Source of the DNA: an uncultured Gemmatimonadales bacterium
Lineage (GTDB): Bacteria > Gemmatimonadota > Gemmatimonadetes > Gemmatimonadales > GWC2-71-9
Reading direction: 5' to 3'
NCBI GenBank assembly: GCA_963779755.1
Contig: CAVZZO010000003.1
Location: 1,440,001-1,504,000 of the forward strand
DNA length: 64,000 bases
The position numbers and the translations under genes are program-made. This document shows positions 25,383-61,460 of this stretch, one piece after another. The notes under the pieces were generated by a model. It was given only the letters and a program-made list of their open reading frames with translations, was not told the origin of the DNA and searched no databases. Every line of letters begins with the position of its first letter. Position 1 is the first letter of the stretch.

Positions 25383-25454
25383 GGGAGTGGCTCGGGATGA
25401 TTTGAAACCGCAGATTACGCAGATTACGCAGAAACGGCAACGACGCGAGGTTGA

Positions 25455-25865
25455 TCAGTCCGCTCCCACGCAGGTGCTATTTTTTGTCAGCACAAAGCGG
25501 TAGTATCCCAGGCTCGGCGTTCCGAAATTGAGCAGGAGAGCGCGGGTCAAACGGCTGGCTTTGAGATAGTTGATAACCTGGGCTCTCTCAATGTCAGTGA
25601 CGGTGGGAAGGGCCTTGATCTCGACGACCAGGTGCTCATAGCAGACAAAGTCGGCGCGGTAGCCGGTTTTCAGGAATTGCCCATTGAAGCGGATTGGGAA
25701 CAGTACCTCCGACGCAAAAGGGATCCCGGCCGCGCTCAATGCCAGAGCCAGCGCCTCGTGGTACACAGCCTCCAGAAAACCCGCTCCCAGTTGTCGATGC
25801 ACCTGCAGAGCTGCCCCAATAACGGCATACGTTTCGCTGTCGCGCCTGGTGCGTAAGATGCTCAT
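25455..25865 (-). CDS. GxxExxY protein
   Basis: GFLEAVY, YRADF, VEIKA, QVINYL, LLLNFG; bracketed by inverted (CGCAGATTA)n repeats. Confidence 0.92.
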   Translation of the reverse strand: MSILRTRRDSETYAVIGAALQVHRQLGAGFLEAVYHEALALALSAAGIPFASEVLFPIRFNGQFLKTGYRADFVCYEHLVVEIKALPTVTDIERAQVINYLKASRLTRALLLNFGTPSLGYYRFVLTKNSTCVGAD

Positions 25866-25981
25866 TAGTAAGTAGTGAAACCAACTGCCGCTACGGCGCA
25901 TCATCATTTCAGCGCACGGCAGGGCATTTTCAATCTGCGTAATCTGCGTAATCTGCGGCTCCACCCATCGGACTCCTGAAA

Positions 25982-43752: not shown

Positions 43753-44859
43753 GTGGACTGTACCAGATAAGTGTTTAGTGTTAGATTGGTGGGCATGGAA
43801 ACTCAACCACTCGTGCTGACCCCCGCCGAGCGCGCCGAGTTGGAGCGTCGGACGCGCAGTCGGACGGGGCGCGCCCAGGATGCTATGGTCGCGCGTGTGT
43901 TGCTGCTGTTGGCGGCGGGCCTGACCTACCGCGACATCGCCGCACGCACGGGGCGCTCGGAACCGTTCATCAGTAAGTGGAAGCGCCGGTTTGTGGAGGC
44001 GCGCCTGGCCGGGCTGTACGTGCGGCACGCGGGGCGTCCCGTCCGAGTCCGGACTCCCCAGCTGGAAGCACGCATTCTCGATGCGACGCGCACGGCCCCG
44101 CCGGACGGGTCGACGCATTGGAGCACCCGGCGACTGGCGAAGCGCCTCAAGCTGCCGCACATGACGGTCGCACGGGTCTGGAGGAAGCACGGGATTCAGC
44201 CGCACCGGATGGAGCGTTATATGGCGTCGAACGATCCCGACTTCGAGACCAAAGCGGCGGATGTGATCGGGCTCTACTTGCATCCGCCGCAGCATGCCGC
44301 CGTTTTCTGTGTGGATGAGAAGACGGCGATCCAGGCCCTCGAGCGCAAGGATCCGATGCTGCCGCTGTCGCCCGGCCGCGCGGAACGCCATGGGTTTGAA
44401 TACGTCCGCCACGGCACGCTGTCGCTGTTCGCCGCCCTCGAGACGCGGACGGGCCTGGTGATCGGCCAGACTGCCGAGCGCCACACGAGCCAGGCCTTCA
44501 TTGCGTTTCTGGCCGATCTCCTGACGCGCGTGCCGGCGCGGCGTGAGGTGCACATCATCTGCGACAACTTGTCGGTGCATAAAACGCAACGCGTCGCGGA
44601 ATTCCTGGCCGAGCATCCGCGCGTGCAGTTGCACTTCACTCCGACCTACAGCTCTTGGTTGAATCAAGTGGAGCTCTGGTTCGCCAAAATCGAACGCGAT
44701 CTGATTCATCGGGGCGTCTTCACCTCCACCAAAGACCTCGCCCGCCGCATCAGGAAGTACATTCGGCAGTACAACCGCGACCCGCGACCGATTCGGTGGA
44801 AGTACGATGATCCCGCTCACCGCATCCACGTCGCTTAACGTTCAACTGGTACAGTCCAC
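43753..44859 (+). mobile_element. IS630-family element
   Basis: TIRs GTGGACTGTACCAG / CTGGTACAGTCCAC with TA duplication. Confidence 0.93.
43795..44838 (+). CDS. IS630 transposase
   Basis: CVDEK, Y.RHGT, DN...HK, SSWLNQVE. Confidence 0.95.
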   Translation: METQPLVLTPAERAELERRTRSRTGRAQDAMVARVLLLLAAGLTYRDIAARTGRSEPFISKWKRRFVEARLAGLYVRHAGRPVRVRTPQLEARILDATRTAPPDGSTHWSTRRLAKRLKLPHMTVARVWRKHGIQPHRMERYMASNDPDFETKAADVIGLYLHPPQHAAVFCVDEKTAIQALERKDPMLPLSPGRAERHGFEYVRHGTLSLFAALETRTGLVIGQTAERHTSQAFIAFLADLLTRVPARREVHIICDNLSVHKTQRVAEFLAEHPRVQLHFTPTYSSWLNQVELWFAKIERDLIHRGVFTSTKDLARRIRKYIRQYNRDPRPIRWKYDDPAHRIHVA

Positions 44860-46027: not shown

Positions 46028-47630
46028 CCCCTATTGCCCGATGGGGGTGGAGGGTGACTATCAGCTCCTAGCCCGTCGGCCTCGGCCGGCGCACCCTCGG
46101 AGCACCCCTAACGAGGAGTGCTCCCATGATTTCCTTCCCCAGGCGCGAGCGCGCCCAGACCGCCGCCGCCGTGGTCGGCGTGGACGCCGGCAAGTTTTCC
46201 CATACCCTGGTCATGCGTCCCCGGGGCCAGCCCGATTCCAAGCCGTTCAGCTTCCCCACCACCCGCCCGGGTTTCGAGGCCGCGGTGGCCTTCCTGCGCC
46301 AGAAGGCGCCCGGCGCCGAGGTCTCCACGGTGCTGGTCGGGATCGAGTTCGCCGGAAACTACGGCTTCACCTTCGCCCACTTCCTGGCCCACCTCGGCGT
46401 CCCGGTCGTGAGCGTCCTTCCGGCCCACACCAAGCGCTGGAAGGACGTCGCGCACAATCAGCCCTTGAAGACCGACGCCAAGGATGCCGGCACCATCACC
46501 GACCTCCTGGCCCAGGGGCACTTCGTGAGCTTCCCATTCCTGGCCCCGGCCTATGCCGATCTCCGTTACCTGGTGGCCGCCCGGGAGCGGCTGTCCCTGC
46601 TGCGGCGCGGCGCGATGACTCAGCTCCGCTCCCTCTTACAGGTGGTCTTCCCCGAGTTCGAGGCCATCTTCCCCCTGTTGACGAAGAAGACGCCGAGGTC
46701 CCTCCTCCGGGCCTTCCCCACCCCGGAGGACCTGCTCCGGGCGTCCAAGGCCAAGGTGCTCCGCGTGCTGCACACCGCCAGCCGCGGCCACTTGGGTCCC
46801 GAAACTTACGAGAAGCTGATCACGGCGGCCCGCGCCACCCTGGGCCTCCCCCGCGCCCAGGGCCGGCTTGGCCAGGAGATCGGTCTGGTCCTCGAGCGGC
46901 TGGCACTCTTCGAGACCCAGATCAAGACCTTGGAGGCGGCGATGGTCGACGCGCTCCAAGGCGTGCCCGAGACGCCCTATCTCCTCAGCATCCCCAAGAT
47001 CGCGCCCGTGACCGCCGCCGTCTTCCTCGGCTCGATCGGCGATCCGCGGGCCTATGAGTCCAGTGCCCAGATTCTCCGGGTGGCCGGGCTCTCGCTGATC
47101 GAGCGCTCCAGCGGCATCCTCCGCGGCACCAAGCGGATCTCCAAGCGAGGCCGGCCGCTGCTCCGGCAGGCGGCGTACATGTTTGCGGTCCGAAGCATCA
47201 CCAAGGGCGGCCTCTTCCGAGCCGAGTACGAGGCCCTCTGCCGCCGCAATGGCGGGCAGAAGATGAAGGCCGTGGTGGCCGTCATGCGCTCGGGCCTGCG
47301 GCTCCTCTACAGCGTAGCCCGGGACCGGCGGGTGTTTACGGCCGAGCCCCCGGTCTGGCGGGATCGTCCTGCCCGGCGGGTCGCCATGGCCTGAGCCTGA
47401 CGCACGACGGCTGGCCGGCCGGGGCTGAGGAGCCCTTGTTCGCTTGAAGGAGCCCCCGGGCTCGCTTCCCATCCTACACGGCTCTCCCTGGCCGAGGGTC
47501 CGCTCGAGTCTCCGATAATGGGGTGTCGAGGGTCGCCCGCCTGTGCGGGCCACGCCTTCGAGTGGTGCTAGCATCGAGCTACGCGGCCCGTGTCCACCGG
47601 CAGGTGCTCTTTGACAATTGTTGTACCATG
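46028..47630 (+). mobile_element. IS110-family element (ends approximate)
   Basis: Left junction at Rhs core; about 230-bp downstream non-coding region ending near TTGACA (47611). Confidence 0.55.
46126..47394 (+). CDS. IS110-family recombinase/transposase
   Basis: VGVDAGK, GIE, KTDAKDA (DEDD); AGL...RSSG...ISKRG. Confidence 0.95.
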   Translation: MISFPRRERAQTAAAVVGVDAGKFSHTLVMRPRGQPDSKPFSFPTTRPGFEAAVAFLRQKAPGAEVSTVLVGIEFAGNYGFTFAHFLAHLGVPVVSVLPAHTKRWKDVAHNQPLKTDAKDAGTITDLLAQGHFVSFPFLAPAYADLRYLVAARERLSLLRRGAMTQLRSLLQVVFPEFEAIFPLLTKKTPRSLLRAFPTPEDLLRASKAKVLRVLHTASRGHLGPETYEKLITAARATLGLPRAQGRLGQEIGLVLERLALFETQIKTLEAAMVDALQGVPETPYLLSIPKIAPVTAAVFLGSIGDPRAYESSAQILRVAGLSLIERSSGILRGTKRISKRGRPLLRQAAYMFAVRSITKGGLFRAEYEALCRRNGGQKMKAVVAVMRSGLRLLYSVARDRRVFTAEPPVWRDRPARRVAMA

Positions 47631-47871: not shown

Positions 47872-48357
47872 CTACCCTGGACGTTTGAGCTCGTAGCCTG
47901 TCGCGCCCGCCTTCGCAGGCCCGACACCAAGCTCAAGCCCGTCAGTTCCGAGAATGACCCACGCATCATCTCGGTCCTCGTTGCTGTCGGCGAACACGTG
48001 CAACTCGTCACCACCTTGAAAGGCGATGAAAAGATCCCAGCCAGGAGGGTGGGCCCGAGCCTCAGTGATCTCTTGACCGACGAGGGGCCTAACCGCCTCT
48101 AACAGATGACCGGTCACGCCTCCGGAAACATTCCAGTCGGCAATCACTTCTTTGGCTGTTTGAAGCCGCCAAGGAGAGAGGATCGTCAGGTGTCTCCAGC
48201 CATGTGGCCGCGCTAGGGGTGCATCGTCTGGACGATGTCCCATGGGGCCAATATCCAAGCAAAGCACTGAGCCGTGCGGATTGTCGATCCCCTCGCACCG
48301 CTTCCCCACTAGCTCGGCGAGTACTCCGCGGACCTCACTGGCACTGAAAGTAGTCAT
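47872..48357 (-). CDS. Putative immunity protein for CT-B
   Basis: Starts 8 bp after the CT stop. Confidence 0.7.
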   Translation of the reverse strand: MTTFSASEVRGVLAELVGKRCEGIDNPHGSVLCLDIGPMGHRPDDAPLARPHGWRHLTILSPWRLQTAKEVIADWNVSGGVTGHLLEAVRPLVGQEITEARAHPPGWDLFIAFQGGDELHVFADSNEDRDDAWVILGTDGLELGVGPAKAGATGYELKRPG

Positions 48358-48365
48358 GGCGATGG

Positions 48366-48944
48366 TTACGGGTTCTTGAGATACTTTGCCTGCTTCGCCA
48401 GCTCTTCCGCGGTGGCTCGGATGTCGTCTGCCGAAAGGTCCTGGCCTGTGATCGCGTCGTGAAGAGCTCGCCGGCCCGCTCGGTTCAGACCAAGATCCTT
48501 CACGATTCGATCGACTTCTCTGTTCGGGCCTGCGTTGTCGCCACGCCCCTTGCCGGCTTGAGCAAACTGCACAGAGCCGTCGACCAACGCGCCGATGGCA
48601 GCACCCACGGCGGCACCTTTAATAGCCCCGGCAGTGGCGCCAGCCGAACCTCCGCCGATTGCGCACAGAGCCGCAACCGGACCTGCGGGAGAACATGCGA
48701 CGGCTCCGGCAGCAGCGCCTCCTGTCCCACCCCCTACCGCACCGATAATCGCCCCGACGCCTGTTCCCAACAAGGTCCAGAAGCCGGGGCAAGATGGACC
48801 AAAGTTGCTATCTTGGGGCGGGCAGAGTCCAAACGGATCGGTGTAGGCTACCGGATTCCCCCCCGCGTAGTCATACAGATTCACTCCACCGGCGAGCCCG
48901 ATGGGATCCTGGGTGAGGAACCGTCCCGTCCTGGGATCATACCA
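48366..48944 (-). CDS. Orphan Rhs-CT cassette B
   Basis: [40 protein letters not shown], Gly/Ala hydrophobic linker, small helical tip. Confidence 0.88.
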
Positions 48945-49083
48945 ATCCGCCGATTACCCAGATTACACCGATTCCATGTAAGAGGAAGGGCAATCGGTCG
49001 AATCTGCGTCATCGGCGGATTCCGAACCACGCCGGCGTTACAATGGTGACGCGGGTGAAGCGGCGGGCGGGTAGCATGGCGGG

Positions 49084-49515
49084 ATGCCGGCCCCCGCCTT
49101 GCCCCACGACCCCGACACTTACGCCATCATTGGCGCGGCCATGGAGGTCCATCGTGCCCTGGGCCCCGGCTATCTGGAGGCGGCCTATCGGGAGGCCCTG
49201 GCTTTCGCCTTCGCCAGTCGGCGGATTCCGTTCGCCAGCGAAGTACCCTTCCGGCTCTTCTTCAACGGCCGCCCGCTCATCACTCGTTACCGGGCCGACT
49301 TTGTCTGCTTCGACCAGGTCGTTGTGGAACTCAAGGCGTTGGCCGCCCTGACGGGCGTCGAGACGGCCCAGATCCTCAACTATCTCAAGGCGAGCGGATT
49401 GACCCGGGGACTCCTCCTGAATTTTGGGAATCCCAGCCTTCAGTACCGGCGCTTCGTCTGGAGCCAGGTGCTGTCTCCCGAACCATCGGCGCCATCGGCG
49501 CCATCGGCGGATTGA
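49084..49515 (+). CDS. GxxExxY protein, copy 1
   Basis: GYLEAAY, YRADF, VELKA, QILNYL. Confidence 0.92.
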   Translation: MPAPALPHDPDTYAIIGAAMEVHRALGPGYLEAAYREALAFAFASRRIPFASEVPFRLFFNGRPLITRYRADFVCFDQVVVELKALAALTGVETAQILNYLKASGLTRGLLLNFGNPSLQYRRFVWSQVLSPEPSAPSAPSAD

Positions 49516-49692
49516 TGCTGGGTGAGGAACCGTCCCGTCCTGGGATCATACCAATCCGCCGATTACCCAGATTACACCGATTCCATGTAAGAGGAAGGGC
49601 AATCGGTCGAATCTGCGTCATCGGCGGATTCCGAACCACGCCGGCGTTACAATGGTGACGCGGGTGAAGCGGCGGGCGGGTAGCATGGCGGG

Positions 49693-50115
49693 ATGCCGGC
49701 CCCCGCCTTGCCCCACGACCCCGACACTTACGCCATCATTGGCGCGGCCATGGAGGTCCATCGTGCCCTGGGCCCCGGCTATCTGGAGGCGGCCTATCGG
49801 GAGGCCCTGGCTTTCGCCTTCGCCAGTCGGCGGATTCCGTTCGCCAGCGAAGTACCCTTCCGGCTCTTCTTCAACGGCCGCCCGCTCATCACTCGTTACC
49901 GGGCCGACTTTGTCTGCTTCGACCAGGTCGTTGTGGAACTCAAGGCGTTGGCCGCCCTGACGGGCGTCGAGACGGCCCAGATCCTCAACTATCTCAAGGC
50001 CAGCGGATTGACCCGGGGACTCCTCCTGAATTTTGGGGGTCCCAGCCTTCAGTACCGGCGCTTCGTCTGGAGCCAGCCGCCGTCCCCCGACCCATCGGCG
50101 CCATCGGCGGATTGA
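49693..50115 (+). CDS. GxxExxY protein, copy 2
   Basis: Near-identical tandem copy, 609-bp period. Confidence 0.92.
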   Translation: MPAPALPHDPDTYAIIGAAMEVHRALGPGYLEAAYREALAFAFASRRIPFASEVPFRLFFNGRPLITRYRADFVCFDQVVVELKALAALTGVETAQILNYLKASGLTRGLLLNFGGPSLQYRRFVWSQPPSPDPSAPSAD

Positions 50116-50390
50116 TGTTGGGTCAGCAAAGACCCGGTTGCGATCCGTCGTACCGCTGCCCGCCGCTAACTTGCTGCTGTTGTTTTTCTTAGTCGCCCCG
50201 CGTCAGCCGTCTGCATCATAACTTACGCGTTTTGGCCCTAGACGCGAGTTTCGAGATCGACTCACCCGGGCCCGAGGGCCGGCGGCCAGGCGCGGCCTCA
50301 ACGGAGGGATGCCGGAGTCTCCCGGGTCATGCTATCGTTCGGGGGTCTGTTGGCCGCCGTCACTATGGATCCGCCCTCGGACAGGCCGGT

Positions 50391-50651
50391 ATGCCGCGCA
50401 TCAGCCAGTTCTTTGGAGTCACGATTGTGATGTACTTCAACGATCACGCGCCACCACATTTTCATGCCCGGTATGGCGAGCATGAGTCCGCTATCGCGAT
50501 TGACACGCTGGGCCCCATCTGGGGGGACCTACCGCCCAGGGCGTTGGCACTGGTTCTGGAGTGGGCGGTGGGGCACCGAGCGGAATTGCTGGCCGACTGG
50601 GGGCGCGCCCGCGAAGGGCGGCCGCTCCTGCCGATTGCACCCCTGACTTGA
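50391..50651 (+). CDS. DUF4160 protein
   Basis: MPRIS.F.G..I.MY.NDH.PPHFHA.Y. Confidence 0.88.
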   Translation: MPRISQFFGVTIVMYFNDHAPPHFHARYGEHESAIAIDTLGPIWGDLPPRALALVLEWAVGHRAELLADWGRAREGRPLLPIAPLT

Positions 50652-50667
50652 GCAAAGGGAGGTAGGT

Positions 50668-50949
50668 ATGTCGACTCGCGTTCGGCTCCGGGCGGTTCAG
50701 CCTCTCGAAGGCACTACCGTGCAGCTTGAATTGACCACGGGTGAAGAGCGCCGCATCGATCTGGCGCCCTTCCTTCGGGGTCCCGTGTTTGCGGCGATCC
50801 GTGAGTCAGCGGAACTGTTCCGACAGATCTCCGTGGACCCGGAGCTCGGCACCGTCGTCTGGCCCAACGGTGCCGACATCGATCCGGACGTACTGATCGG
50901 GGGGTTCCGTCCCGCTTGGCAGGACGAACCGGCCCCGACCTCCAGATAG
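50668..50949 (+). CDS. DUF2442 protein
   Basis: GTVVWPNGADIDP; paired with DUF4160. Confidence 0.88.
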   Translation: MSTRVRLRAVQPLEGTTVQLELTTGEERRIDLAPFLRGPVFAAIRESAELFRQISVDPELGTVVWPNGADIDPDVLIGGFRPAWQDEPAPTSR

Positions 50950-51009
50950 TCCAAGGTCCCCCGGCGCTGCCGGGGGCCATGCTCGCGGAGTTGGCGCAAG
51001 CGCTGAAAG

Positions 51010-51296
51010 TCTCCGCCGCGTTCGCCACTCGGGGGATTCCGTTCGCCAGCGAAGTGCCTTTCCGGCTCCTCTTCAACGGCCGCCCGCTCACCACCCGTTA
51101 CCGGGCGGACTTTGTCTGTTATGAACGGGTCATCGTGGAACTCAAGGCCCTGAGCGCACTCACCGACGCCGAAACCGCCCAGGTCCTGAACTATCTCAAG
51201 GCCAGCGGCCTGAGTCGTGGGTTGTTGATCACCTTCGGGGGCCCGAGTCTGCAGTACCGCCGCTTCGTCCCGACCCCGAAAGGCTCCTCGGCGTAA
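51010..51296 (+). pseudogene. 5'-truncated GxxExxY gene
   Basis: IPFASEVPF..YRADF..QVLNYL. Confidence 0.85.
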
Positions 51297-51387
51297 TCGG
51301 TGCAATCTGCGGATTGGTGAGGAACCGTCCCGTCCTGGGATCATACCAATCCGCCGATTACCCAGATTACACCGATTCACGAGTCGG

Positions 51388-51616
51388 GAGGCCGTACGGC
51401 TCCGTACGACGGCGGCCAAGCGCTACAAACGGGTCGAGAACGCATGCGCGCTCATCTGGAAACTGCTGACGGTTGCGGAGACAACCTTCAGGAACCTGAA
51501 CGCGCCACACCGGCTCCGCGACGTTGCCGCCGGGCGGAAATACGAGAACGGCATCGCCGTTCACTCGAAACGGGTCGCCGCCTGATTCTCGTTTACACAC
51601 CTATTGAAACGAGCTC
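51388..51616 (+). mobile_element. IS256-family 3' remnant
   Basis: AVRLRTTAAKRYKRVENACALIWKLL.VAE..F..LNAP; TTTACACACCTATTGA terminal motif. Confidence 0.7.
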
Positions 51617-51668
51617 ACCAAAGTGCGCGTGGCAGGCTAGGCTCCGCCATTGGGCGCAGTAGAAGGCA

Positions 51669-51695
51669 ATGAGGGCGCCGCTGAGGCGCCCTCAT
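51669..51695. terminator. GC-rich hairpin downstream of immunity gene
   Basis: ATGAGGGCGCC..GGCGCCCTCAT. Confidence 0.4.
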
Positions 51696-51725
51696 GCGAT
51701 CATCAGTTGGAATCTCAGAGATGAG

Positions 51726-51968
51726 TCAGGGCAGGCCCAAACACGGCTCGTGCCACAGTCCAGGAATCCCTTCGAGTTGGTACAACGGATCACCACCGTG
51801 ATAGAAGCCGACGTCCTTCACCGTGGCGACCCTCCCAGCATACCCGAGCTGCTCAGAACTCAGCGGATGGTGAAGCTTCCATTCGTGGGCGAAGCGCTCC
51901 AAGTTCGCCTGTGCAGAGATCCGCACCTGTGCACCCACATGAAACCTGGCTTCATACGGCGTTGACAT
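51726..51968 (-). CDS. Putative immunity protein for CT-C
   Basis: Starts 12 bp after the CT stop. Confidence 0.65.
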   Translation of the reverse strand: MSTPYEARFHVGAQVRISAQANLERFAHEWKLHHPLSSEQLGYAGRVATVKDVGFYHGGDPLYQLEGIPGLWHEPCLGLP

Positions 51969-51980
51969 TTATCACCCATT

Positions 51981-52676
51981 CTATGGGGTAGGAGTGAAGG
52001 TGCCAGGCGCCACCGGGATTGGTTGCGTTGTCTGAAACTGTGCTGCCCCGCCGCTCGTGGCGGGACCGTTGAAAGGTGTCTTGAGCGCATCCGCCGGTAC
52101 CCTGAAAGTCGCTTGCATGGCACCCTTGCCTCCGTCGATCTCGAGAAGCGCCTCCGCCTCAGCAGCACTCTTGCCAGCGACTTCACCAGATGGGGTGACG
52201 AAACTGCCCGCACGAAGGGCCCCAGAACCTTCGATTGCAGCCGCCCCCTCGACACTTGTGAAGTGGGTGATAGCAACTGAGCGAAGCGAGGTACCGACCC
52301 TGCTCGCTACAATGCCGGCGACCTTCGCTCCCCCAATGAGCAGTGCCGCCTCAGCAGTGCCACGAAGAACGTGCCCGCTGCCGATATCGTTGCCCGCCGT
52401 CGCCGCCGCATTTAGACCCGTAGCGTGGAATGTCGCATTGAGAGCGGCTCCTGCATTAAGGGCCAAACTGCCAACAGCGCCACCTCGCCGAGCTCCCCAG
52501 TTTGCCAATCCTTGGGCGAGGCATTCTGTCCACGCCGACGACCCCTTGCATGGGTCCAACCCGAAGGGATCGCTAAAGCCGACCGGATTCCCCCCCGCGT
52601 ACGCATACAGATTGACCCCGCCCGCGAGGCCAATGGGATCCTGGGTGAGGAAGCGTCCCGTCTTGGGGTCATACCA
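51981..52676 (-). CDS. Orphan Rhs-CT cassette C (HFT motif, possibly ART-like)
   Basis: [20 protein letters not shown]; tip ITHFTSVEGAAAIEGSG. Confidence 0.85.
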   Translation of the reverse strand, partial: WYDPKTGRFLTQDPIGLAGGVNLYAYAGGNPVGFSDPFGLDPCKGSSAWTECLAQGLANWGARRGGAVGSLALNAGAALNATFHATGLNAAATAGNDIGSGHVLRGTAEAALLIGGAKVAGIVASRVGTSLRSVAITHFTSVEGAAAIEGSGALRAGSFVTPSGEVAGKSAAEAEALLEIDGGKGAMQATFRVPADALKTPFNGPATSGGAAQFQTTQPIPVAPGTFTPTP

Positions 52677-52767
52677 ATCCGCCGATTACACAGATTGCGC
52701 GGATTCGCGAATCCGGAAAACCCAAGGAGGCAAATCTGAGTAATCAGCGTAATCTGCGGATTCATCC

Positions 52768-52968
52768 CGCTACCGGGCGGACTTTGTCTGTTCTGAACGG
52801 GTCATCGTGGAACTCAAGGCCCTGAGCGCACTCACCGACGCCGAAACCGCCCAGGTCCTGAACTATCTCAAGGCCAGCGGCCTGAGTCGTGGGTTGTTGA
52901 TCAACTTCGGGGGCCCGAGTCTGCAGTACCGCCGCTTCGTCCTGACCCCGAAAGGCTCAACGGCGTAA
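52768..52968 (+). pseudogene. GxxExxY 3' half
   Basis: [24 protein letters not shown]. Confidence 0.88.
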
Positions 52969-53112
52969 TCGGTGCAATCTGCGGATTGGTGAGGAACCGT
53001 CCCGTCTTGGGATCCTACCGATCCGCCGATTACACAGATTGCGCGGATTCGCGAATCCGGGAAAACCCAAGGAGGCAAATCTGAGTAATCGGCGTCATCG
53101 GCGGATTCATCC

Positions 53113-53313
53113 CGCTACCGGGCGGACTTTGTCTGCTATGATCGGGTCATCGTGGAACTCAAGGCCCTGAGCGCACTCACCGACGCCGAAACCGCCCAGG
53201 TCCTCAACTATCTCAAGGCCAGCGGCCTGCGTCGTGGGTTGTTGATCAACTTCGGGGGCCCGAGTCTGCAGTACCGCCGCTTCGTCCTGACCCCGAAAGG
53301 CTCCTCGGCGTAA
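53113..53313 (+). pseudogene. GxxExxY 3' half (tandem copy)
   Basis: Same breakpoint as 52768; 345-bp period. Confidence 0.88.
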
Positions 53314-53332
53314 TCGGTGCAATCTGCGGATT

Positions 53333-53470
53333 GGTGAGGAACCGTCCCGTCCTGGGATCATACCACCGGTTCCGGAAGTAGGTGAACCCGCCCGTCTGGT
53401 TCGGGGTGCTCCCACCGGTGAAGCCGGTCTCGGTGTTGGTCTGGCCCGCCGAGAGGCTGCCCATCCCCCA
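53333..53470 (-). pseudogene. Upstream Rhs core fragment
   Basis: [34 protein letters not shown]. Confidence 0.85.
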
Positions 53471-53475
53471 CCTGC

Positions 53476-53570
53476 GAGGAAAAAGGGCCGCCAAAGCCCT
53501 CCTCGATGCCCTCATCCTCAACACCCACGCCAAACGCTGGACCGGTACCGGGTTGAAGAGGGGCCGCTAA
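53476..53570 (+). pseudogene. Probable XRE-regulator C-terminal remnant
   Basis: KRAAKALLDALILNTHAKRW. Confidence 0.45.
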
Positions 53571-53627
53571 AACGAAGAGCCCAGCGCTGAGAGCCCCGGG
53601 CCCATCGCAGCCTCGCTCACAGCCGCT

Positions 53628-53915
53628 CTACTGCGCAGGCGGCTGCAATTTGTCGATGATACCCTCCAGCGCCTTCCCCTCGGGATTCGCATTCCAGTCT
53701 TCATCAAACCCGGCACGCTGAAGCTGATCGGCCACTGCTTCGCGCAAGGCATTCACTTGGGGCCGTGTGAAGCGCACCGGCTGCGTGCGCTCAGCATCGT
53801 CCGCCACGATCTCGCGTATCTCAGCCGACACTTCGCATCGCTCCCTGATCAGCTTGCGCTCGAGGCGCGTGAGGCTCAGCCAGATCTCAGCTGTCACAGC
53901 TTCTCCTAGAGCCAA
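53628..53915 (-). CDS. Putative immunity protein for CT-D
   Basis: Starts 10 bp after the CT stop; GFDEDW..N.EG..LE.IIDKL. Confidence 0.7.
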   Translation of the reverse strand: MALGEAVTAEIWLSLTRLERKLIRERCEVSAEIREIVADDAERTQPVRFTRPQVNALREAVADQLQRAGFDEDWNANPEGKALEGIIDKLQPPAQ

Positions 53916-53925
53916 TCGAGTGTGG

Positions 53926-54567
53926 TCACTGACGCCATGCTGTGACTACCTTCCCCAGCAGGTTGATAGCGAAAGCAGCGGTCTGACCAGTGATCCGCAA
54001 GCTCTCTCGCCCCAATTGGTCAACAAGCGGCCCCGTAGTGGTGCCGTTCCGAGCCGCGTCCAGAAGAGCACCGGGGCTCACGCCTCGGTTGATAATCTGG
54101 TTGATGCCGTGCCCCGTGAATCCAGAGATCGCATTGCCGATGAACCGCGAGCCTACTGCGGCCACCGTCGCCCCCGCAGCACTCGCCTGCGTGGCGGCCC
54201 CGCTGGACAGCAGAGCCGAGCCAGCGGCGACTAGACCGTCCACAACCACTGCGCCGGTAACAACAGCCCCTGCAACTGCAGCTACAGCGCAGCCGGTGCT
54301 CTCCTTGCACGACGCGGCTGCGCCCTTGAGATCATTCAGGAGCCCGCCGTTGCCCTGAGCCGCCTCGTGCGCGTAGTAACCCGAGGACCCCTCGGGACAG
54401 TCGTCGTATTCGTCCGTCTTCCCGTCACCACCAGCATCCTCGGGACACAGACCAAATGGGTCAGCAAACGCGACCGGATTCCCCCCCGCGTACGCATACA
54501 GATTGACGCCACCCGCGAGGCCGATGGGATCCTGGGTGAGGAACCGTCCCGTCCTGGGATCATACCA
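53926..54567 (-). CDS. Orphan Rhs-CT cassette D (probable BECR-type RNase tip)
   Basis: Open frame from WYDP; tip FTGHGINQII.RGV.P..LLDA..N...GKVVTAW. Confidence 0.85.
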   Translation of the reverse strand, partial: WYDPRTGRFLTQDPIGLAGGVNLYAYAGGNPVAFADPFGLCPEDAGGDGKTDEYDDCPEGSSGYYAHEAAQGNGGLLNDLKGAAASCKESTGCAVAAVAGAVVTGAVVVDGLVAAGSALLSSGAATQASAAGATVAAVGSRFIGNAISGFTGHGINQIINRGVSPGALLDAARNGTTTGPLVDQLGRESLRITGQTAAFAINLLGKVVTAWRQ

Positions 54568-54699
54568 ATCCGCCGATTGCGCAGATCCTTCACCTTACAT
54601 CTTCCAATTTACTCAAGAAGGATTCCACAGACAGCGCCGCGCCGCCTGGAGTACCGCCGGATGGTCTTCAGCCCTCCCCGAAGCGGCTGATCTGTCCGC

Positions 54700-55945: not shown

Positions 55946-56510
55946 GATCGCACCTCGGAGCCTTTCCGCGCTGCGAGTTGTAGACGTTGTCTCCGTGGAC
56001 GATGGCGAACTGCTCACTACGGTTCATGGACTTCCCGAGGGCCACCGGAGCATGATGGAGGAGCTCGTGTGCGAAGACTTGGCCCAAAGTAAACGATTCG
56101 CCCCCGCCGTCACATTTTCCCCATTCCCCAGTGTTATACCCGATCTTATCAGAGTTTCGAAACACCGTGACGGCAAGCGGATCGAACTGCTCCGAGCTCA
56201 TGTCATCTGACAAGTGGAAGTTGAAAGTCACCTTCCCGGTGAAGACCATGTGTCGGAAGGCCGCCTGGATCTCGGCAAACTTCTCATTCCCCCTTGCCTT
56301 GAAGCTCTCAACGCAGTTGGACTTGTCCCAAGTGATGTCCGTGTCCGTGGCATCGCCAGTGGCCTTCTTCGCCTTGTCGAGGTCTTCCGGCGTCTTCCCC
56401 GTAGCGCACACCTTCAGCCCGAACGGATCACTGAACGCTACCGGGTTCGACCCCGCATAGGCATACAGATTGACCCCGCCGGCGAGCCCGATGGGATCCT
56501 GGGTGAGGAA
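55932..56510 (-). CDS. Orphan Rhs-CT cassette E, HExxH metallopeptidase
   Basis: [23 protein letters not shown]...N....G..PR..H. Confidence 0.85.
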   Translation of the reverse strand, partial: FLTQDPIGLAGGVNLYAYAGSNPVAFSDPFGLKVCATGKTPEDLDKAKKATGDATDTDITWDKSNCVESFKARGNEKFAEIQAAFRHMVFTGKVTFNFHLSDDMSSEQFDPLAVTVFRNSDKIGYNTGEWGKCDGGGESFTLGQVFAHELLHHAPVALGKSMNRSEQFAIVHGDNVYNSQRGKAPRCDHGGF

Positions 56511-56548
56511 GGATCCCTGGCCGGAATCGTACCCTCAGGCTGTTCGAC

Positions 56549-60809: not shown

Positions 60810-61460
60810 CTATGGCTGAACATGGCTGTTGCTGTAGGAGCCGTCAGCTCCCCACACCTCGACATTCCCGTGAAGCTGAGGAGAGCCCCCACGAGTTAGC
60901 GGGTGCGTCTCCACGCGAATGTCTACCTTTGTGCCGTCAGGAAAAACAATCGCTACTCCCTGACCGCCTCTGGTAGCATGCGGCTCAACTGTGGCCCCTG
61001 CATCCGATACTGCCTGAACAATCTGCTCGTTGGTAACCTGTGAAGAGCCGTCCCCCAACGAGCCGATAGTTCTACCGAGGACTGTTCCTTCCGCAGCACC
61101 AACCACCTTGTTCAGTACCGCACCCGCCACCTTGATCCCGCCGAAGAGAAGGGCGACGTCCTTAGCTCCCCCGGAAATGTCCCCACTTCCGATCTTGTCG
61201 CCGGCAGCAGCCGCGAAGTTAACCCCAAGAGCCTCAAGGCCAGCGTTAGCGGCGGCGCCTGTCCACAATGCGGCCTTACCGACTATGCCGCCTCGAGAAG
61301 CACCCCAGTTGGCTAATCCTTGGGCGAGGCATTCTGTCCACGCCGACGACCCCTTGCATGGGTCCAGCCCAAACGGATCACGAAACGCAACCGGATTCCC
61401 CCCCGCATACGCATACAGATTGACCCCACCGGCGAGCCCGATGGGATCCTGGGTGAGAAA
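60810..61460 (-). CDS. Orphan Rhs-CT cassette F
   Basis: [14 protein letters not shown]; His-rich tip IRVETH..HGNVE..NSH. Confidence 0.85.
   Translation of the reverse strand, partial: FLTQDPIGLAGGVNLYAYAGGNPVAFRDPFGLDPCKGSSAWTECLAQGLANWGASRGGIVGKAALWTGAAANAGLEALGVNFAAAAGDKIGSGDISGGAKDVALLFGGIKVAGAVLNKVVGAAEGTVLGRTIGSLGDGSSQVTNEQIVQAVSDAGATVEPHATRGGQGVAIVFPDGTKVDIRVETHPLTRGGSPQLHGNVEVWGADGSYSNSHVQP

Follow-up and report, generated by a model that had tools for sequence, protein, structure and literature searches.

Along one Rhs locus of an uncultured Gemmatimonadales bacterium, orphan Rhs toxin cassettes and cassettes carrying a GxxExxY nuclease gene alternate on opposite strands and meet at copies of a 33-bp piece of the Rhs core. 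Does the nuclease element recognize this piece as an att-like site and create or capture toxin cassettes, as an earlier note on this DNA had proposed, or is the arrangement the product of ordinary insertion and recombination? We address this question in a stretch of 64,000 nucleotides (the window), in the genome around it and in 150 other genomes of the order.

A 33-bp piece of the Rhs core recurs along one array

A genome-wide search for the 33-mer, allowing up to 8 mismatches, returned 11 sites, all within a single Rhs locus (C3:1488912-1507453) and four of them just beyond the window end. The seven window positions given in the earlier note were confirmed: five copies are exact (48912, 49521, 51316, 53333 and 54535) and two carry 3 mismatches each (52644 and 52988), against matches in 0/100 shuffles. 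The flanks described for them also held, with ATCCGCCGATT following six of the seven, the copy at 53333 running instead into Rhs core sequence, and AATCTGCGGATT standing directly before three (51316, 52988 and 53333). The hairpin noted around 51316 is well supported, as positions 51288-51378 fold with the 33-mer as the loop (-23.3 kcal/mol, z -4.68, 0/200 shuffles as good). The copies in the window, with a related degenerate sequence (the P site), are as follows; here and below, a slash between sequences marks a joint.

48912..48944, no strand: 33-mer copy 1, exact, within orphan cassette A; a left arm adjoins its right side
49521..49553, no strand: 33-mer copy 2, exact, separates cassettes e1 and e2; left joint GATG/CTG+33-mer
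50114..50154, no strand: P site, degenerate and Rhs-site-like, 41 nt, right of e2; GATGTTGGGTCAGC..GTACC, minus strand ..TGSLLTQ
51316..51348, no strand: 33-mer copy 3, exact, isolated, with a right arm on one side and a left-arm stump on the other; hairpin loop
52644-52676: 33-mer copy 4, 3 mismatches, inside cassette C
52988-53020: 33-mer copy 5, 3 mismatches, separates e4 from e5
53333-53365: 33-mer copy 6, exact, terminal part of an Rhs core fragment
54535-54567: 33-mer copy 7, exact, inside cassette D

The array runs on past the window to an intact main Rhs gene (1390 aa), and the locus consists of this one main gene and six or more orphan cassettes, in each of which a tip is joined to a toxin domain. 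In an NCBIfam search, TIGR03696 (Rhs_assc_core) matched the main gene and cassettes A, C and D, the last three (48366-48944, 51981-52676 and 53926-54567) over the final 40 of its 76 positions (37-76), and the 33-mer encodes 11 residues on its minus strand, as the earlier note had read it. The copy in cassette C was said to differ mostly at third positions; it carries two synonymous third-position differences and one R-to-K replacement. The main protein has no Pfam RHS_repeat match, and the C-terminal toxin domain of cassette A belongs to no known family and found no match in a Pfam search.

47872..48357, minus strand: candidate immunity gene of cassette A, 161-aa ORF, role assigned from its position downstream of A; weak DUF6188 match below cut-off in Pfam, none in NCBIfam
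48366..48944, minus strand: orphan Rhs cassette A, 40-aa core end; TIGR03696 37-76 of 76, E 2.5e-14
51726..51968, minus strand: candidate immunity gene of cassette C by position, 80-aa ORF, no Pfam match
51981..52676, minus strand: orphan Rhs cassette C; TIGR03696 E 1.4e-14
53333..53451, minus strand: Rhs core fragment, 119 nt, 97.5% identity to the main gene; left edge meets the right arm of e5
53628..53915, minus strand: candidate immunity gene of cassette D by position, 95-aa ORF, no Pfam match
53926..54567, minus strand: orphan Rhs cassette D; TIGR03696 E 1.6e-14
56415..56534, minus strand: orphan Rhs tip x56, diverged site (GYDSGQGSFLTQ), no GxxExxY arm
61365..61460, minus strand: orphan Rhs tip x61, homology stops 6-7 nt inside the 33-mer position, no GxxExxY arm

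The tips x56 and x61, which the earlier note overlooked, do not share the start point of the cassettes at the 33-mer.

The nuclease of the array matches PF13366 (Pfam) and TIGR04256 (NCBIfam), and its cassettes are bounded by inverted 9-mer arms. Nine of the genome's 12 GxxExxY loci (e1-e9) sit inside this 18-kb array; another cassette stands alone elsewhere in the window.

25410..25956, minus strand: solitary GxxExxY cassette, 62% identical protein, CGCAGATTA-type inverted arms, no flanking direct repeat
48945..49520, plus strand: cassette e1, an intact type I copy; 9-mer units form a hairpin upstream, CCATCGGCG units the right arm
49084-49515, plus strand: e1 GxxExxY gene, 143 aa; PF13366 121.7 bits, TIGR04256 131.4 bits
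49554..50113, plus strand: cassette e2, likewise an intact type I copy, 98.5% identity to e1; its gene (49693-50115) encodes 140 aa
50232..50949, plus strand: DUF4160 + DUF2442 gene pair (Pfam E 6.5e-18 and 2.3e-14), within a duplicated module
50975..51315, plus strand: cassette e3, type II, gene 5'-truncated; right arm ..CGGTGCAATCTGCGGATT; PF13366 positions 33-116, E 1.4e-21
52677..53332, plus strand: cassettes e4 (52677-52987) and e5 (53021-53332), type II with an internal deletion, each a hairpin, the 3' half of the gene and a right arm; tandem period 344-345 nt
54568..54588, plus strand: left-arm stump, ~20 nt (ATCCGCCGATTGCGCAGATCC), then a Gp49-like (DUF891) + HTH gene pair

The repeated joint is best explained by descent

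Large parts of the array are copies of one another. On the window scale, 48912-49500 matches 64787-65375 at 99.3% identity, the module 49277-51202 matches 64561-66468 at 94.7%, and 52551-53365, which covers a tip, two cassettes and three 33-mers, matches 64014-64819 at 90%. The tandem e4/e5 units (52644-53019 and 52988-53364) are 95.5% identical and e7 and e8 92.4%; overall, duplicate modules fall at 90-99% identity. Judged by these identities, the joints form groups that go back to segmental or tandem duplications. In the 6 pairs formed by cassettes A, D, E and the main gene, the 33-mer itself shows 0 differences, whereas the 87 nt next to it show 0.169 per site; an identical 33-mer beside tips diverged at 17% of sites is the outcome expected from unequal crossing-over with the main gene.

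Orphans with one fixed start point also arise without GxxExxY, 5 to 12 of them per relative. In G018 and G037, neither of which has a GxxExxY element there, 5/5 orphans begin at GGGATCYTGCTGACCCAG and 12/12 share a 15-nt start (CCCCGCCACGCAGCGC-type), respectively, and the orphans of G045 have a conserved upstream block in common, again without such an element. Because of the module duplicates, the identical 33-mer and these single-start orphans, the apparently fixed joint is best explained as shared by descent.

The main rival is that the nuclease and its 9-mer arms form a site-specific or homing-type system for the 33-bp Rhs site, inserting repeatedly and independently and capturing or shuffling toxins. 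It draws on the left joint, which is identical at four cassettes with different toxins and at five sites between cassettes, with no fewer than three variants of the arm (v1-v3) and two types of cassette at that base, and on the arm contact, on at least one side, of every 33-mer in the genome except the main-gene copy. The order right arm-33-mer-left arm, moreover, resembles a core between inverted binding-site arrays. The left arm, however, begins with the same 30 nt in both cassette types, the arm variants agree over their first 11-30 nt, the joints group by duplication, and x56 and x61 are untouched.

Other genomes weigh further against this rival. In an order-wide survey of 150 other genomes (listing ~150 of the 164 matches to PF13366 and 150 of the 220 to the tip), no GxxExxY gene lay within 30 kb of an Rhs tip among the matches listed, the nearest pairs among them (G136 and G154) being ~30 kb apart. 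An Rhs motif stood within 1.2 kb of 0/40 GxxExxY cassettes and near 0/10 further loci scanned from a set of 33. Within the genome itself, unrelated sites are occupied by two other GxxExxY loci and by 58 left/right arm pairs that enclose no gene and often stand in tandem clusters. One observation favors the rival: in a second genus (G007), an orphan tip directly adjoins a hairpin that has this type of arm but no gene, which may point to separate origins of arm-Rhs joints within the family, although that joint is at a different base, 29 nt away, and has no repeat. A site-specific Rhs system is not supported, and we consider it unlikely; nothing in the analysis indicates that toxin cassettes are made or taken up by the nuclease. 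With grouped duplicate joints, identical 33-mers, fixed starts free of GxxExxY and no proximity across the order, all joints appear, on sequence alone, to trace to one ancestral event spread by duplication, the very outcome that the earlier note had named as contradicting its proposal.

One insertion probably duplicated its target

On the plus strand, the e4/e5 block reads tip-33-mer/left arm-e4-right arm/33-mer/left arm-e5-right arm/33-mer-core fragment. With two cassettes but three 33-mers, the outermost of which continue into tip and core, a duplicating event is needed, and the geometry in this one genome suggests that at least one insertion duplicated, or recombined through, the 33-bp Rhs core piece. 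The genomes closest to it are of other genera, and the best GxxExxY relatives are 57-66% identical.

A second cassette, 63% identical (C3:1553.6-1554.2 kb), offers an independent parallel for duplicating insertion in the same genome. Around it the 3' end of a tRNA-Gln is duplicated over ~35 bp in two parts (21 + 14 nt, genome-unique), and both arms of the cassette adjoin this duplication with a gap of 0-2 nt. The left tRNA-Gln copy retains its ancestral neighbors (hairpin and integrase remnant), as it does in G039. The proposal of integration at an att-like core piece thus survives in part: direct 33-mer repeats flank arm-bounded cassettes, the core fragment at 53333-53451 preserves a joint, and the tRNA-Gln repeat is comparable, but recurrent, site-specific targeting of Rhs finds no support, as the joints group by duplication. 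The 10-mer TCCTGGGATC is common to both duplicated targets (0.0023 shared 10-mers expected, post hoc) and is out of register with the joints. A target-like direct repeat abutted both arms in 0/40 and 0/33 (0/73) other GxxExxY cassettes, with L043 (27 nt) and L052 (19 nt) left out of closer inspection for the 0/40 count, and long duplication is accordingly no general footprint of the GxxExxY family.

The reading that we favor, and hold to be somewhat probable, is that an undescribed REP-like cassette colonized an Rhs orphan array, inserting with a long duplication of its target, and that amplification and crossing-over followed. One cassette, or at most two, would have entered an Rhs copy where core meets tip, duplicating the 33-bp target in a recombinase-free insertion of the type described for restriction-modification units. 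Sequence relationships show that the repeat-flanked unit then multiplied in tandem (periods of 344 and 609 nt) and that whole modules were duplicated later. Unequal homologous crossing-over between main gene and orphan, in the ~45-nt identical block (33-mer + 12 nt), may have followed; every such event would leave a former main-gene toxin behind the same arm/33-mer joint, which would account for four different toxins with one joint.

A Campbell-type origin, in which a circular cassette carrying the Rhs site or the tRNA-Gln end recombines through RecA or a tyrosine integrase acting in trans, and the repeat is an att-like identity block, strikes us as quite unlikely. It would fit the site-like sequence always found to the right of type I cassettes, including the P site, which recurs right of e9 outside the window and only partly resembles the 33-mer; P sites right of e2 and e9 could mean that the element carries a site-like sequence, a point against the duplicating insertion that we favor. 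The deviating type I right joint (GATG/CTG..), missed in the earlier note, also tells against that insertion: at 49520/49521 it reads ..GGATTGATGCTG/GGTGAGG, so that Rhs-like sequence is 3 to 7 nt longer there. The site between e1 and e2 looks like a P/B hybrid (GATG/CTGGGTGAGG). The tRNA-Gln cassette has a complete tRNA on one side and a 3' fragment on the other, and an integrase-bearing island has left a remnant next to it; in G039 the order is integrase-hairpin-46-nt tRNA-Gln fragment. Classical att sites include tRNA 3' ends (PMC2853133). The Rhs array, however, has no integrase in or beside it, its neighbors being IS110- and IS630-type transposases, and two unrelated cores are not expected for one integrase. 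A repeat of 33 bp is also close to the shortest that RecA-mediated recombination can use. No circles or circle joints appeared in the short contigs of public runs, which break at the repeats, so that this absence weighs little.

Still less likely, in our estimate, is that no insertion duplicated its target, and that the right arm/33-mer and 33-mer/left arm joints came from two illegitimate events, or from a tandem duplication that chanced to take in 33 nt of the cassette, followed by gene conversion. Microhomology lies by both joints (ATCCTG versus ATCTG and CCGGTT versus CCGATT, offset ~5 nt each), and family hairpins form tandem arrays with repeated spacers elsewhere (C1:709-711, 717-718 and 726-728 kb). 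Tandem duplication of 33-mer plus cassette, however, predicts a right arm joined to core without a 33-mer, whereas right arm/33-mer-core is observed, and the tRNA-Gln case shows the same geometry independently. That misassembly of a repeat-rich metagenome bin produced the array is highly improbable: although the genome is in 4 contigs, repeats of 340-600 nt are hard for short reads and public runs yield only short contigs that end at the repeats, the copies have diverged (e4/e5 95.5%, e7/e8 92.4%, modules 90-95%) and have unique flanks, and a contig of run X1, possibly the source sample, crosses the 33-mer/arm joint (48915-49051) with no difference.

Relation to known systems

Poole et al. are said to have described, in 2011, an Rhs main gene with orphan rhs-CT/rhsI arrays and C-terminal displacement. 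The present array is similar in having a large core-domain protein followed by fragments with a conserved core end and variable toxin, a small downstream ORF (candidate immunity) after A, C and D, and main-orphan homology that permits duplication and fusion, of which the 33-mer beside diverged tips is the expected trace. Recombination between main and orphan rhs following duplication is reported by Koskiniemi et al. (2014, PMC3967940). Here, by contrast, the block kept by four orphans is just 33-45 nt and ends exactly at a foreign repeat arm, opposite-strand nuclease cassettes separate the orphans, and the main protein lacks the RHS_repeat match.

Insertion of restriction-modification gene units with long target duplication was reportedly found by Nobusato et al. 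in 2000. Furuta, Abe and Kobayashi (2010, PMC2853133) describe target duplication of >30 bp on insertion and propose amplification via the repeats. Our locus is alike in placing a small PD-(D/E)XK-type nuclease unit with no recombinase between direct repeats of >30 bp (33 and ~35 bp), and the tandem amplification proposed there is seen here. Unlike those units, the cassette has neither a methyltransferase nor a restriction-modification family match and has its own inverted 9-mer arms abutting the repeats; most other GxxExxY cassettes are without such repeats.

Compared with REP/REPIN elements and their RAYT transposase genes, as reported by Bertels and Rainey (2011, PMC3116915, PMC3337134), the family shares short hairpin-forming repeats scattered genome-wide, a few of which bracket its single small enzyme gene. 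It differs in having a PD-(D/E)XK enzyme rather than the HUH Y1 fold of RAYT, and arms that are phased arrays of 8-9-nt units, varying in sequence between cassettes, in a layout seen across phyla.

H-rpt (ISAs1-family) elements, which are DDE insertion sequences, occur inside classical E. coli Rhs elements and likewise place a repeated mobile-type element downstream of Rhs toxin/immunity modules; we know of no report that connects H-rpt to the core through one constant nucleotide or that places it between duplicated stretches of core. Integrative elements accrete in tandem at tRNA att sites (tyrosine integrases; CIME-type elements). The tRNA-Gln cassette resembles them in its setting, but it has no integrase of its own, its arms reach within 0-2 nt of both repeats, and no integrase lies near the Rhs repeats.

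Together, these results describe a REP-like family of hairpins built from inverted arrays of 9-nt units, some of them around a GxxExxY PD-(D/E)XK nuclease gene. The array of this soil bacterium most likely reflects one old target-duplicating insertion, copied by ordinary recombination, with no dedicated toxin-shuffling system; nothing requires the nuclease to act on Rhs, and cassettes and 33-mers would serve as portable homology.

Orphan Rhs cassettes share a 33-bp core-end repeat

The 33-mer picked out in the earlier note was recovered in the window as five exact copies and two with three mismatches (0 of 100 shuffles matched), and across the 4.23-Mb genome (4 contigs, 68.5% GC, with the window at C3:1440001-1504000) we found 11 copies at up to 8 mismatches, all within C3:1488912-1507453. 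ATCCGCCGATT directly follows six of the window copies and AATCTGCGGATT directly precedes three, as had been noted, and the proposed hairpin with the 33-mer as its loop is predicted at 51288-51378 (-23.3 kcal/mol, z -4.68). Read on the minus strand, the 33-mer codes inside the RHS repeat-associated core domain, also in line with the note: the orphan Rhs cassettes A, C and D match TIGR03696 at profile positions 37-76, and the protein of the intact main Rhs gene, past the window's right end, matches it at 69.7 bits (residues 1152-1230 of 1390 aa).

Rhs gene and orphan cassettes with TIGR03696 matches
48366-48944, orphan cassette A
51981-52676, orphan cassette C
53926-54567, orphan cassette D
C3:1506883-1511055 (L097:2883-7055), minus strand, main Rhs gene, 1390 aa, intact, outside the window

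The core domain, with its DPxGL-type boundary, is followed by a variable C-terminal domain, which in the main protein contains a Colicin_E5 match (26.3 bits against a cut-off of 25); colicin E5 is a tRNA anticodon nuclease. Because the 1390-aa main protein has no match to PF05593 (RHS_repeat), even at E up to 5, we name the locus an Rhs core-domain toxin and claim no canonical RHS-repeat shell for it; a 1481-aa paralogue near the main gene does match RHS_repeat, at 151 bits. In the direction of the Rhs genes (right to left along the plus strand), the main gene is followed by the orphans E, x61, x56, D, C and A, of which x56 and x61 have start points unlike the others and no arm.

The array belongs to a large multi-rhs region: at C3:1514-1548 kb, no more than 45 kb to its right, are at least five further Rhs core-end matches, in open frames of 385-1665 aa. 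The left end of the array adjoins an IS110-family (DEDD) transposase gene (46126-47394, plus strand), with an IS630-type DDE_3 transposase gene (43771-44838, plus strand) 2 kb beyond it; IS110 elements often target repeat hairpins. A short open reading frame (51390-51600, plus strand) past the left-arm stump at 51349-51389 looks, in our own reading, like the C-terminal end of a transposase, and a longer related frame lies at C3:1503400-1503800, just before cassette E.

GxxExxY genes are enclosed by inverted arrays of 9-nt units

The plus-strand genes between the Rhs cassettes encode GxxExxY proteins, as the note had stated, matching TIGR04256 at 131.4 bits (cut-off 35) and, for the two intact window genes, PF13366 (PDDEXK_3) at 121.7 and 120.2 bits (cut-off 22). 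The translated protein contains GYLEAAY and ADFVCFDQVVVELK, which we take to be the GxxExxY and D..(D/E)xK nuclease motifs. Of the genome's 12 GxxExxY loci, nine sit in this array; in the deleted copies e4 and e5 the N-terminal half is missing.

GxxExxY cassettes of the array
e1, e2 and, outside the window, e9: intact type I copies
e3 and, outside the window, e10: 5'-truncated type II copy behind a DUF4160/DUF2442 pair
e4, e5 and, outside the window, e7, e8: internally deleted type II copies, about 311 nt

Both arms of a cassette are built of 9-nt units, the left reading AATCCGCCG ATTACCCAG ATTACACCG.. and the inverted right ..CGGTGCAAT CTGCGGATT. We saw this inverted-array layout in each of 40 cassettes drawn from 151 genomes of the order and in the 10 loci inspected out of 33 from distant phyla; the unit sequences vary between copies. 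The layout resembles that of REP/REPIN-RAYT systems, but the enclosed gene here is of the PD-(D/E)XK type rather than an HUH Y1 transposase, which places the cassettes outside that group. Several of the distant-phyla arm arrays (L062, L078, L081, L063) open with TTATCCACA, which matches the DnaA-box consensus, to be compared with the window arms at 48945-48975; units of the TTACGCAGA type, 9 nt long, resemble degenerate forms of that consensus.

The genome holds 58 left/right arm pairs, mostly gene-less and several in tandem clusters. Gene-less hairpins of the CCGCAGATT/AATCTGCGG family recur in tandem about every 270 nt, their spacers repeated as well, so tandem amplification of a hairpin together with its adjoining DNA is common in this genome. 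Another gene-less hairpin (C1:1557835-1557908) occupies the gap between two tRNA genes, beginning at the 3' end of one of them with no duplication.

Tandem arrays of CCGCAGATT/AATCTGCGG hairpins in the genome
C1:620.6-621.6 kb
C1:709.2-710.9 kb
C1:717.0-718.4 kb
C1:725.8-728.2 kb
C3:1766.0-1766.4 kb

Cassette arms abut long direct repeats at two targets

The stretch at 52644-53451 reads tip, 33-mer, left arm-e4-right arm, 33-mer, left arm-e5-right arm, 33-mer, core fragment. It thus holds three 33-mers for two cassettes, and the outer copies continue into the Rhs tip and core, the last extending 86 nt into core sequence with 97.5% identity to the main gene. On this reading of the sequence, the structure needs either an insertion that duplicates 33 bp or a Campbell-type crossover through the 33-bp identity. 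CRISPR-type (Cas1-Cas2) integration was considered as the source of the duplication and set aside, the inserts being 300-600 nt rather than spacer-sized. Tandem duplication of a 33-mer plus cassette would leave a joint of right arm and core without a 33-mer, and unequal crossing-over between two elements cannot give three 33-mers for two cassettes. The intact main-gene site at C3:1507453 holds a single copy of the 33-mer within the same genome; the 60 relatives searched include none of the same genus.

The right joint of e1 reads GATG/CTG followed by the 33-mer. To the right of e2 and e9 lies a degenerate site, GATGTTGGGTCAGC.., whose minus strand encodes ..TGSLLTQ (compare GILLTQ at the orphan starts of the relative G018). 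Both features would fit a crossover between two short sequences that resemble each other, and they would also fit an element with a site-like end of its own. Comparing 48900-48912 and 48945-48956 with 67441-67500 (alignment A1), we also saw a 5-of-6-nt similarity between the arms and the Rhs sequence that borders the 33-mer on either side (ATCTG/ATCCTG; CCGATT/CCGGTT), offset by about 5 nt each, which may be microhomology used at insertion.

A second, independent cassette with long flanking repeats lies 46 kb further on (C3:1553.6-1554.2 kb) and encodes a protein 63% identical to that of the window. On the right, the arm directly adjoins an intact tRNA-Gln(CTG) at its 3' end. On the left, the arm borders a duplicate of the tRNA's final 35 nt, which a 76-bp GC-rich hairpin-forming insert divides into two exact pieces, 21 and 14 nt long. 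The 21-mer occurs nowhere else in the genome, and the insert has no repeated copies there. Beyond the left copy come a hairpin and the last 25 or so codons of a gene that we label, from our own reading of its motifs, tyrosine-integrase-like; these codons are fused to a primase/VirE-like part in a 221-aa open reading frame of what looks like a decayed island (L122, near C3:1552.7-1554.4 kb). Since another genome, G039, has the order integrase-hairpin-tRNA-Gln fragment, these neighbors suggest an ancestral tRNA-hairpin-integrase arrangement whose tRNA end the cassette entered. A search for the empty tRNA-Gln site found only partly comparable contexts, in G039 and G037, and among 40 cassettes scanned, one had a nearby tRNA (tRNA-Ala, L028), with no repeat there.

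Both long direct repeats hold TCCTGGGATC (48929-48938 and C3:1554197-1554206). Sharing a 10-mer by chance is unlikely (0.0023 expected, calculated post hoc). TCCTGGGATC has 9 copies elsewhere in the genome, and we rejected it as a recognition motif because it stands at different distances from the joints of the two targets and is thus out of register.

Repeats longer than 30 bp around inserts shorter than 20 kb that carry no mobility gene characterize insertion with long target duplication, and the cassettes show this pattern, with 33-bp repeats around 311-576-nt cassettes at the Rhs target and 21 + 14 nt at tRNA-Gln. Such insertion is described as leaving repeats of more than 30 bp in the absence of a recombinase, with later amplification via the repeats (PMC2853133). 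It is the closest known mechanism for the proposed initial insertion. The long target repeats resemble those of the restriction-modification (R-M) units of Furuta et al. 2010, but GxxExxY is the sole gene here and restriction or modification genes are absent; the cassettes behave like the long-duplication kind but are not R-M units.

The repeated joints probably descend from one event

The earlier note had taken the fixed nucleotides at the joints as a sign of a candidate site-specific system. The joints themselves are real; repeated independent events were not borne out, the joints being related by duplication. The 33-mer with e1 and the 33-mer with e9 are 99.3% identical, e1 and e2 98.5%, the modules at 49277-51202 and 64561-66468 94.7%, and the tip-33-mer-cassette-33-mer-cassette-33-mer blocks of arrays C and E 90% over 816 nt; the left-arm variants have their first 11-30 nt in common. 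Pairwise tip identities all fall at 85-93% over about 120 nt, which is uninformative on single origin by phylogeny. The repeated fixed joints are probably one event.

Cassettes A, D and E carry the same 33-mer as the main gene without a single difference, whereas the adjoining 87 nt differ at 16.9% of sites, as expected if the orphans arose by unequal crossing-over with the main gene. Each orphan would then have come from a crossover with the resident main gene inside a short identical block, which would leave the former main toxin behind an already present joint of arm and 33-mer. Experiments in Salmonella have demonstrated recombination between main and orphan genes following duplication (PMC3967940). 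For the spread, ordinary Rhs orphan-array dynamics are the closest known mechanism.

Fixed orphan starts also occur in relatives without GxxExxY, in a survey of 65 tips from 18 genomes, and this counts toward the single-event reading of the fixed nucleotides. In G018 all five orphans begin at GGGATCYTGCTGACCCAG, and each is preceded by unrelated DNA; in G037 the start is identical in twelve orphans; and G045 has a conserved block upstream of its orphans. The G018 locus (L096, C40:72000-91000) carries a 9-bp inverted repeat at the boundary of the five starts (GGGATCCTG CTGACC CAGGATCCC), which may be a signal for recombination or else a fold-back scar. At the G037 locus (L104, C2:576000-593000), the twelve cassettes lie in 17 kb, each starting ..CCCCGCCACGCAGCGC (..PATQR DP..) and having unique flanks, an integron-like regularity with no recombinase visible in the rows examined.

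The joint in other genomes

A search for the joint in relatives, as the note had suggested, found no recurrence: with a 151-nt joint query, BLAST gave matches in 10 of 60 relatives over the Rhs part only (query 1-85), none continuing beyond the W end of the 33-mer toward an arm. Nor did GxxExxY genes lie beside Rhs cores, none being within 30 kb of an Rhs tip on the same contig in the 150 other genomes of the order, among the matches listed (about 150 of 164 GxxExxY and 150 of 220 Rhs tip matches); both tallies take in the unpublished genomes G014, G105 and G117, on which no single claim depends. No Rhs motif was found within 1.2 kb of any of the 40 cassettes, or in the 10 loci scanned among relatives of the nuclease (14 loci in genome contigs and 21 in metagenome contigs, the best 57-66% identical). 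A target-like repeat abutted the arms in none of the 73 other cassettes (40 of the order, 33 distant), with direct repeats read as arm units or second hairpins and those of L043 (27 nt) and L052 (19 nt) left out. One exception points the other way: in G007, of a different genus, a gene-less hairpin of the same arm kind ends ..CTGCGGATT/CACCCAAGATCCC and adjoins an orphan tip, with no repeat and with its joint 29 nt downstream of the one described here. Three soil-metagenome runs of one study gave only short contigs on the stretch (137-374 nt), which bear on neither excision nor the assembly; apart from one contig that spans the joint of 33-mer and arm (48915-49051), they show no joints, circles or empty sites.

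Site-specific integrative elements have a recombinase and reuse the same target in independent genomes, and neither was found. The cassettes contain no recombinase, the neighbors of the array are IS110- and IS630-type transposases, and an integrase remnant occurs only at the tRNA-Gln locus. With no reuse of the target among the matches listed for other genomes, the dedicated site-specific system on Rhs cassettes proposed in the note is unsupported. The observation is real and its geometry informative; the locus shows no new toxin-cassette recombination system.

Discussion

GxxExxY proteins form a large family present in many phyla. They have no published function, and the full-text literature on 'GxxExxY' and 'PF13366' yielded nothing on mobility and no description of their hairpin cassettes. 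Interest now centers on the long-duplication footprint of this otherwise undescribed cassette family. We offer as a tentative and rather unlikely proposal that GxxExxY hairpin cassettes are an undescribed mobile element whose insertion would duplicate about three helical turns (33-36 bp), leaving two independent footprints here (Rhs core end and tRNA-Gln 3' end, both with TCCTGGGATC), and that, after entering an Rhs locus, the cassettes and their duplicated site might serve as portable recombination modules by which toxin/immunity cassettes are multiplied and reshuffled.

Two cassettes with arms abutting 33-35-bp target duplications in one genome are a rare structural clue to movement, and they tie the GxxExxY family to the insertion with long target duplication seen for R-M units. 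For Rhs biology, the locus indicates that orphan toxin cassettes can acquire a foreign repeat as their fixed upstream border, and that a block of about 45 nt can apparently sustain exchange between a main gene and its orphans.
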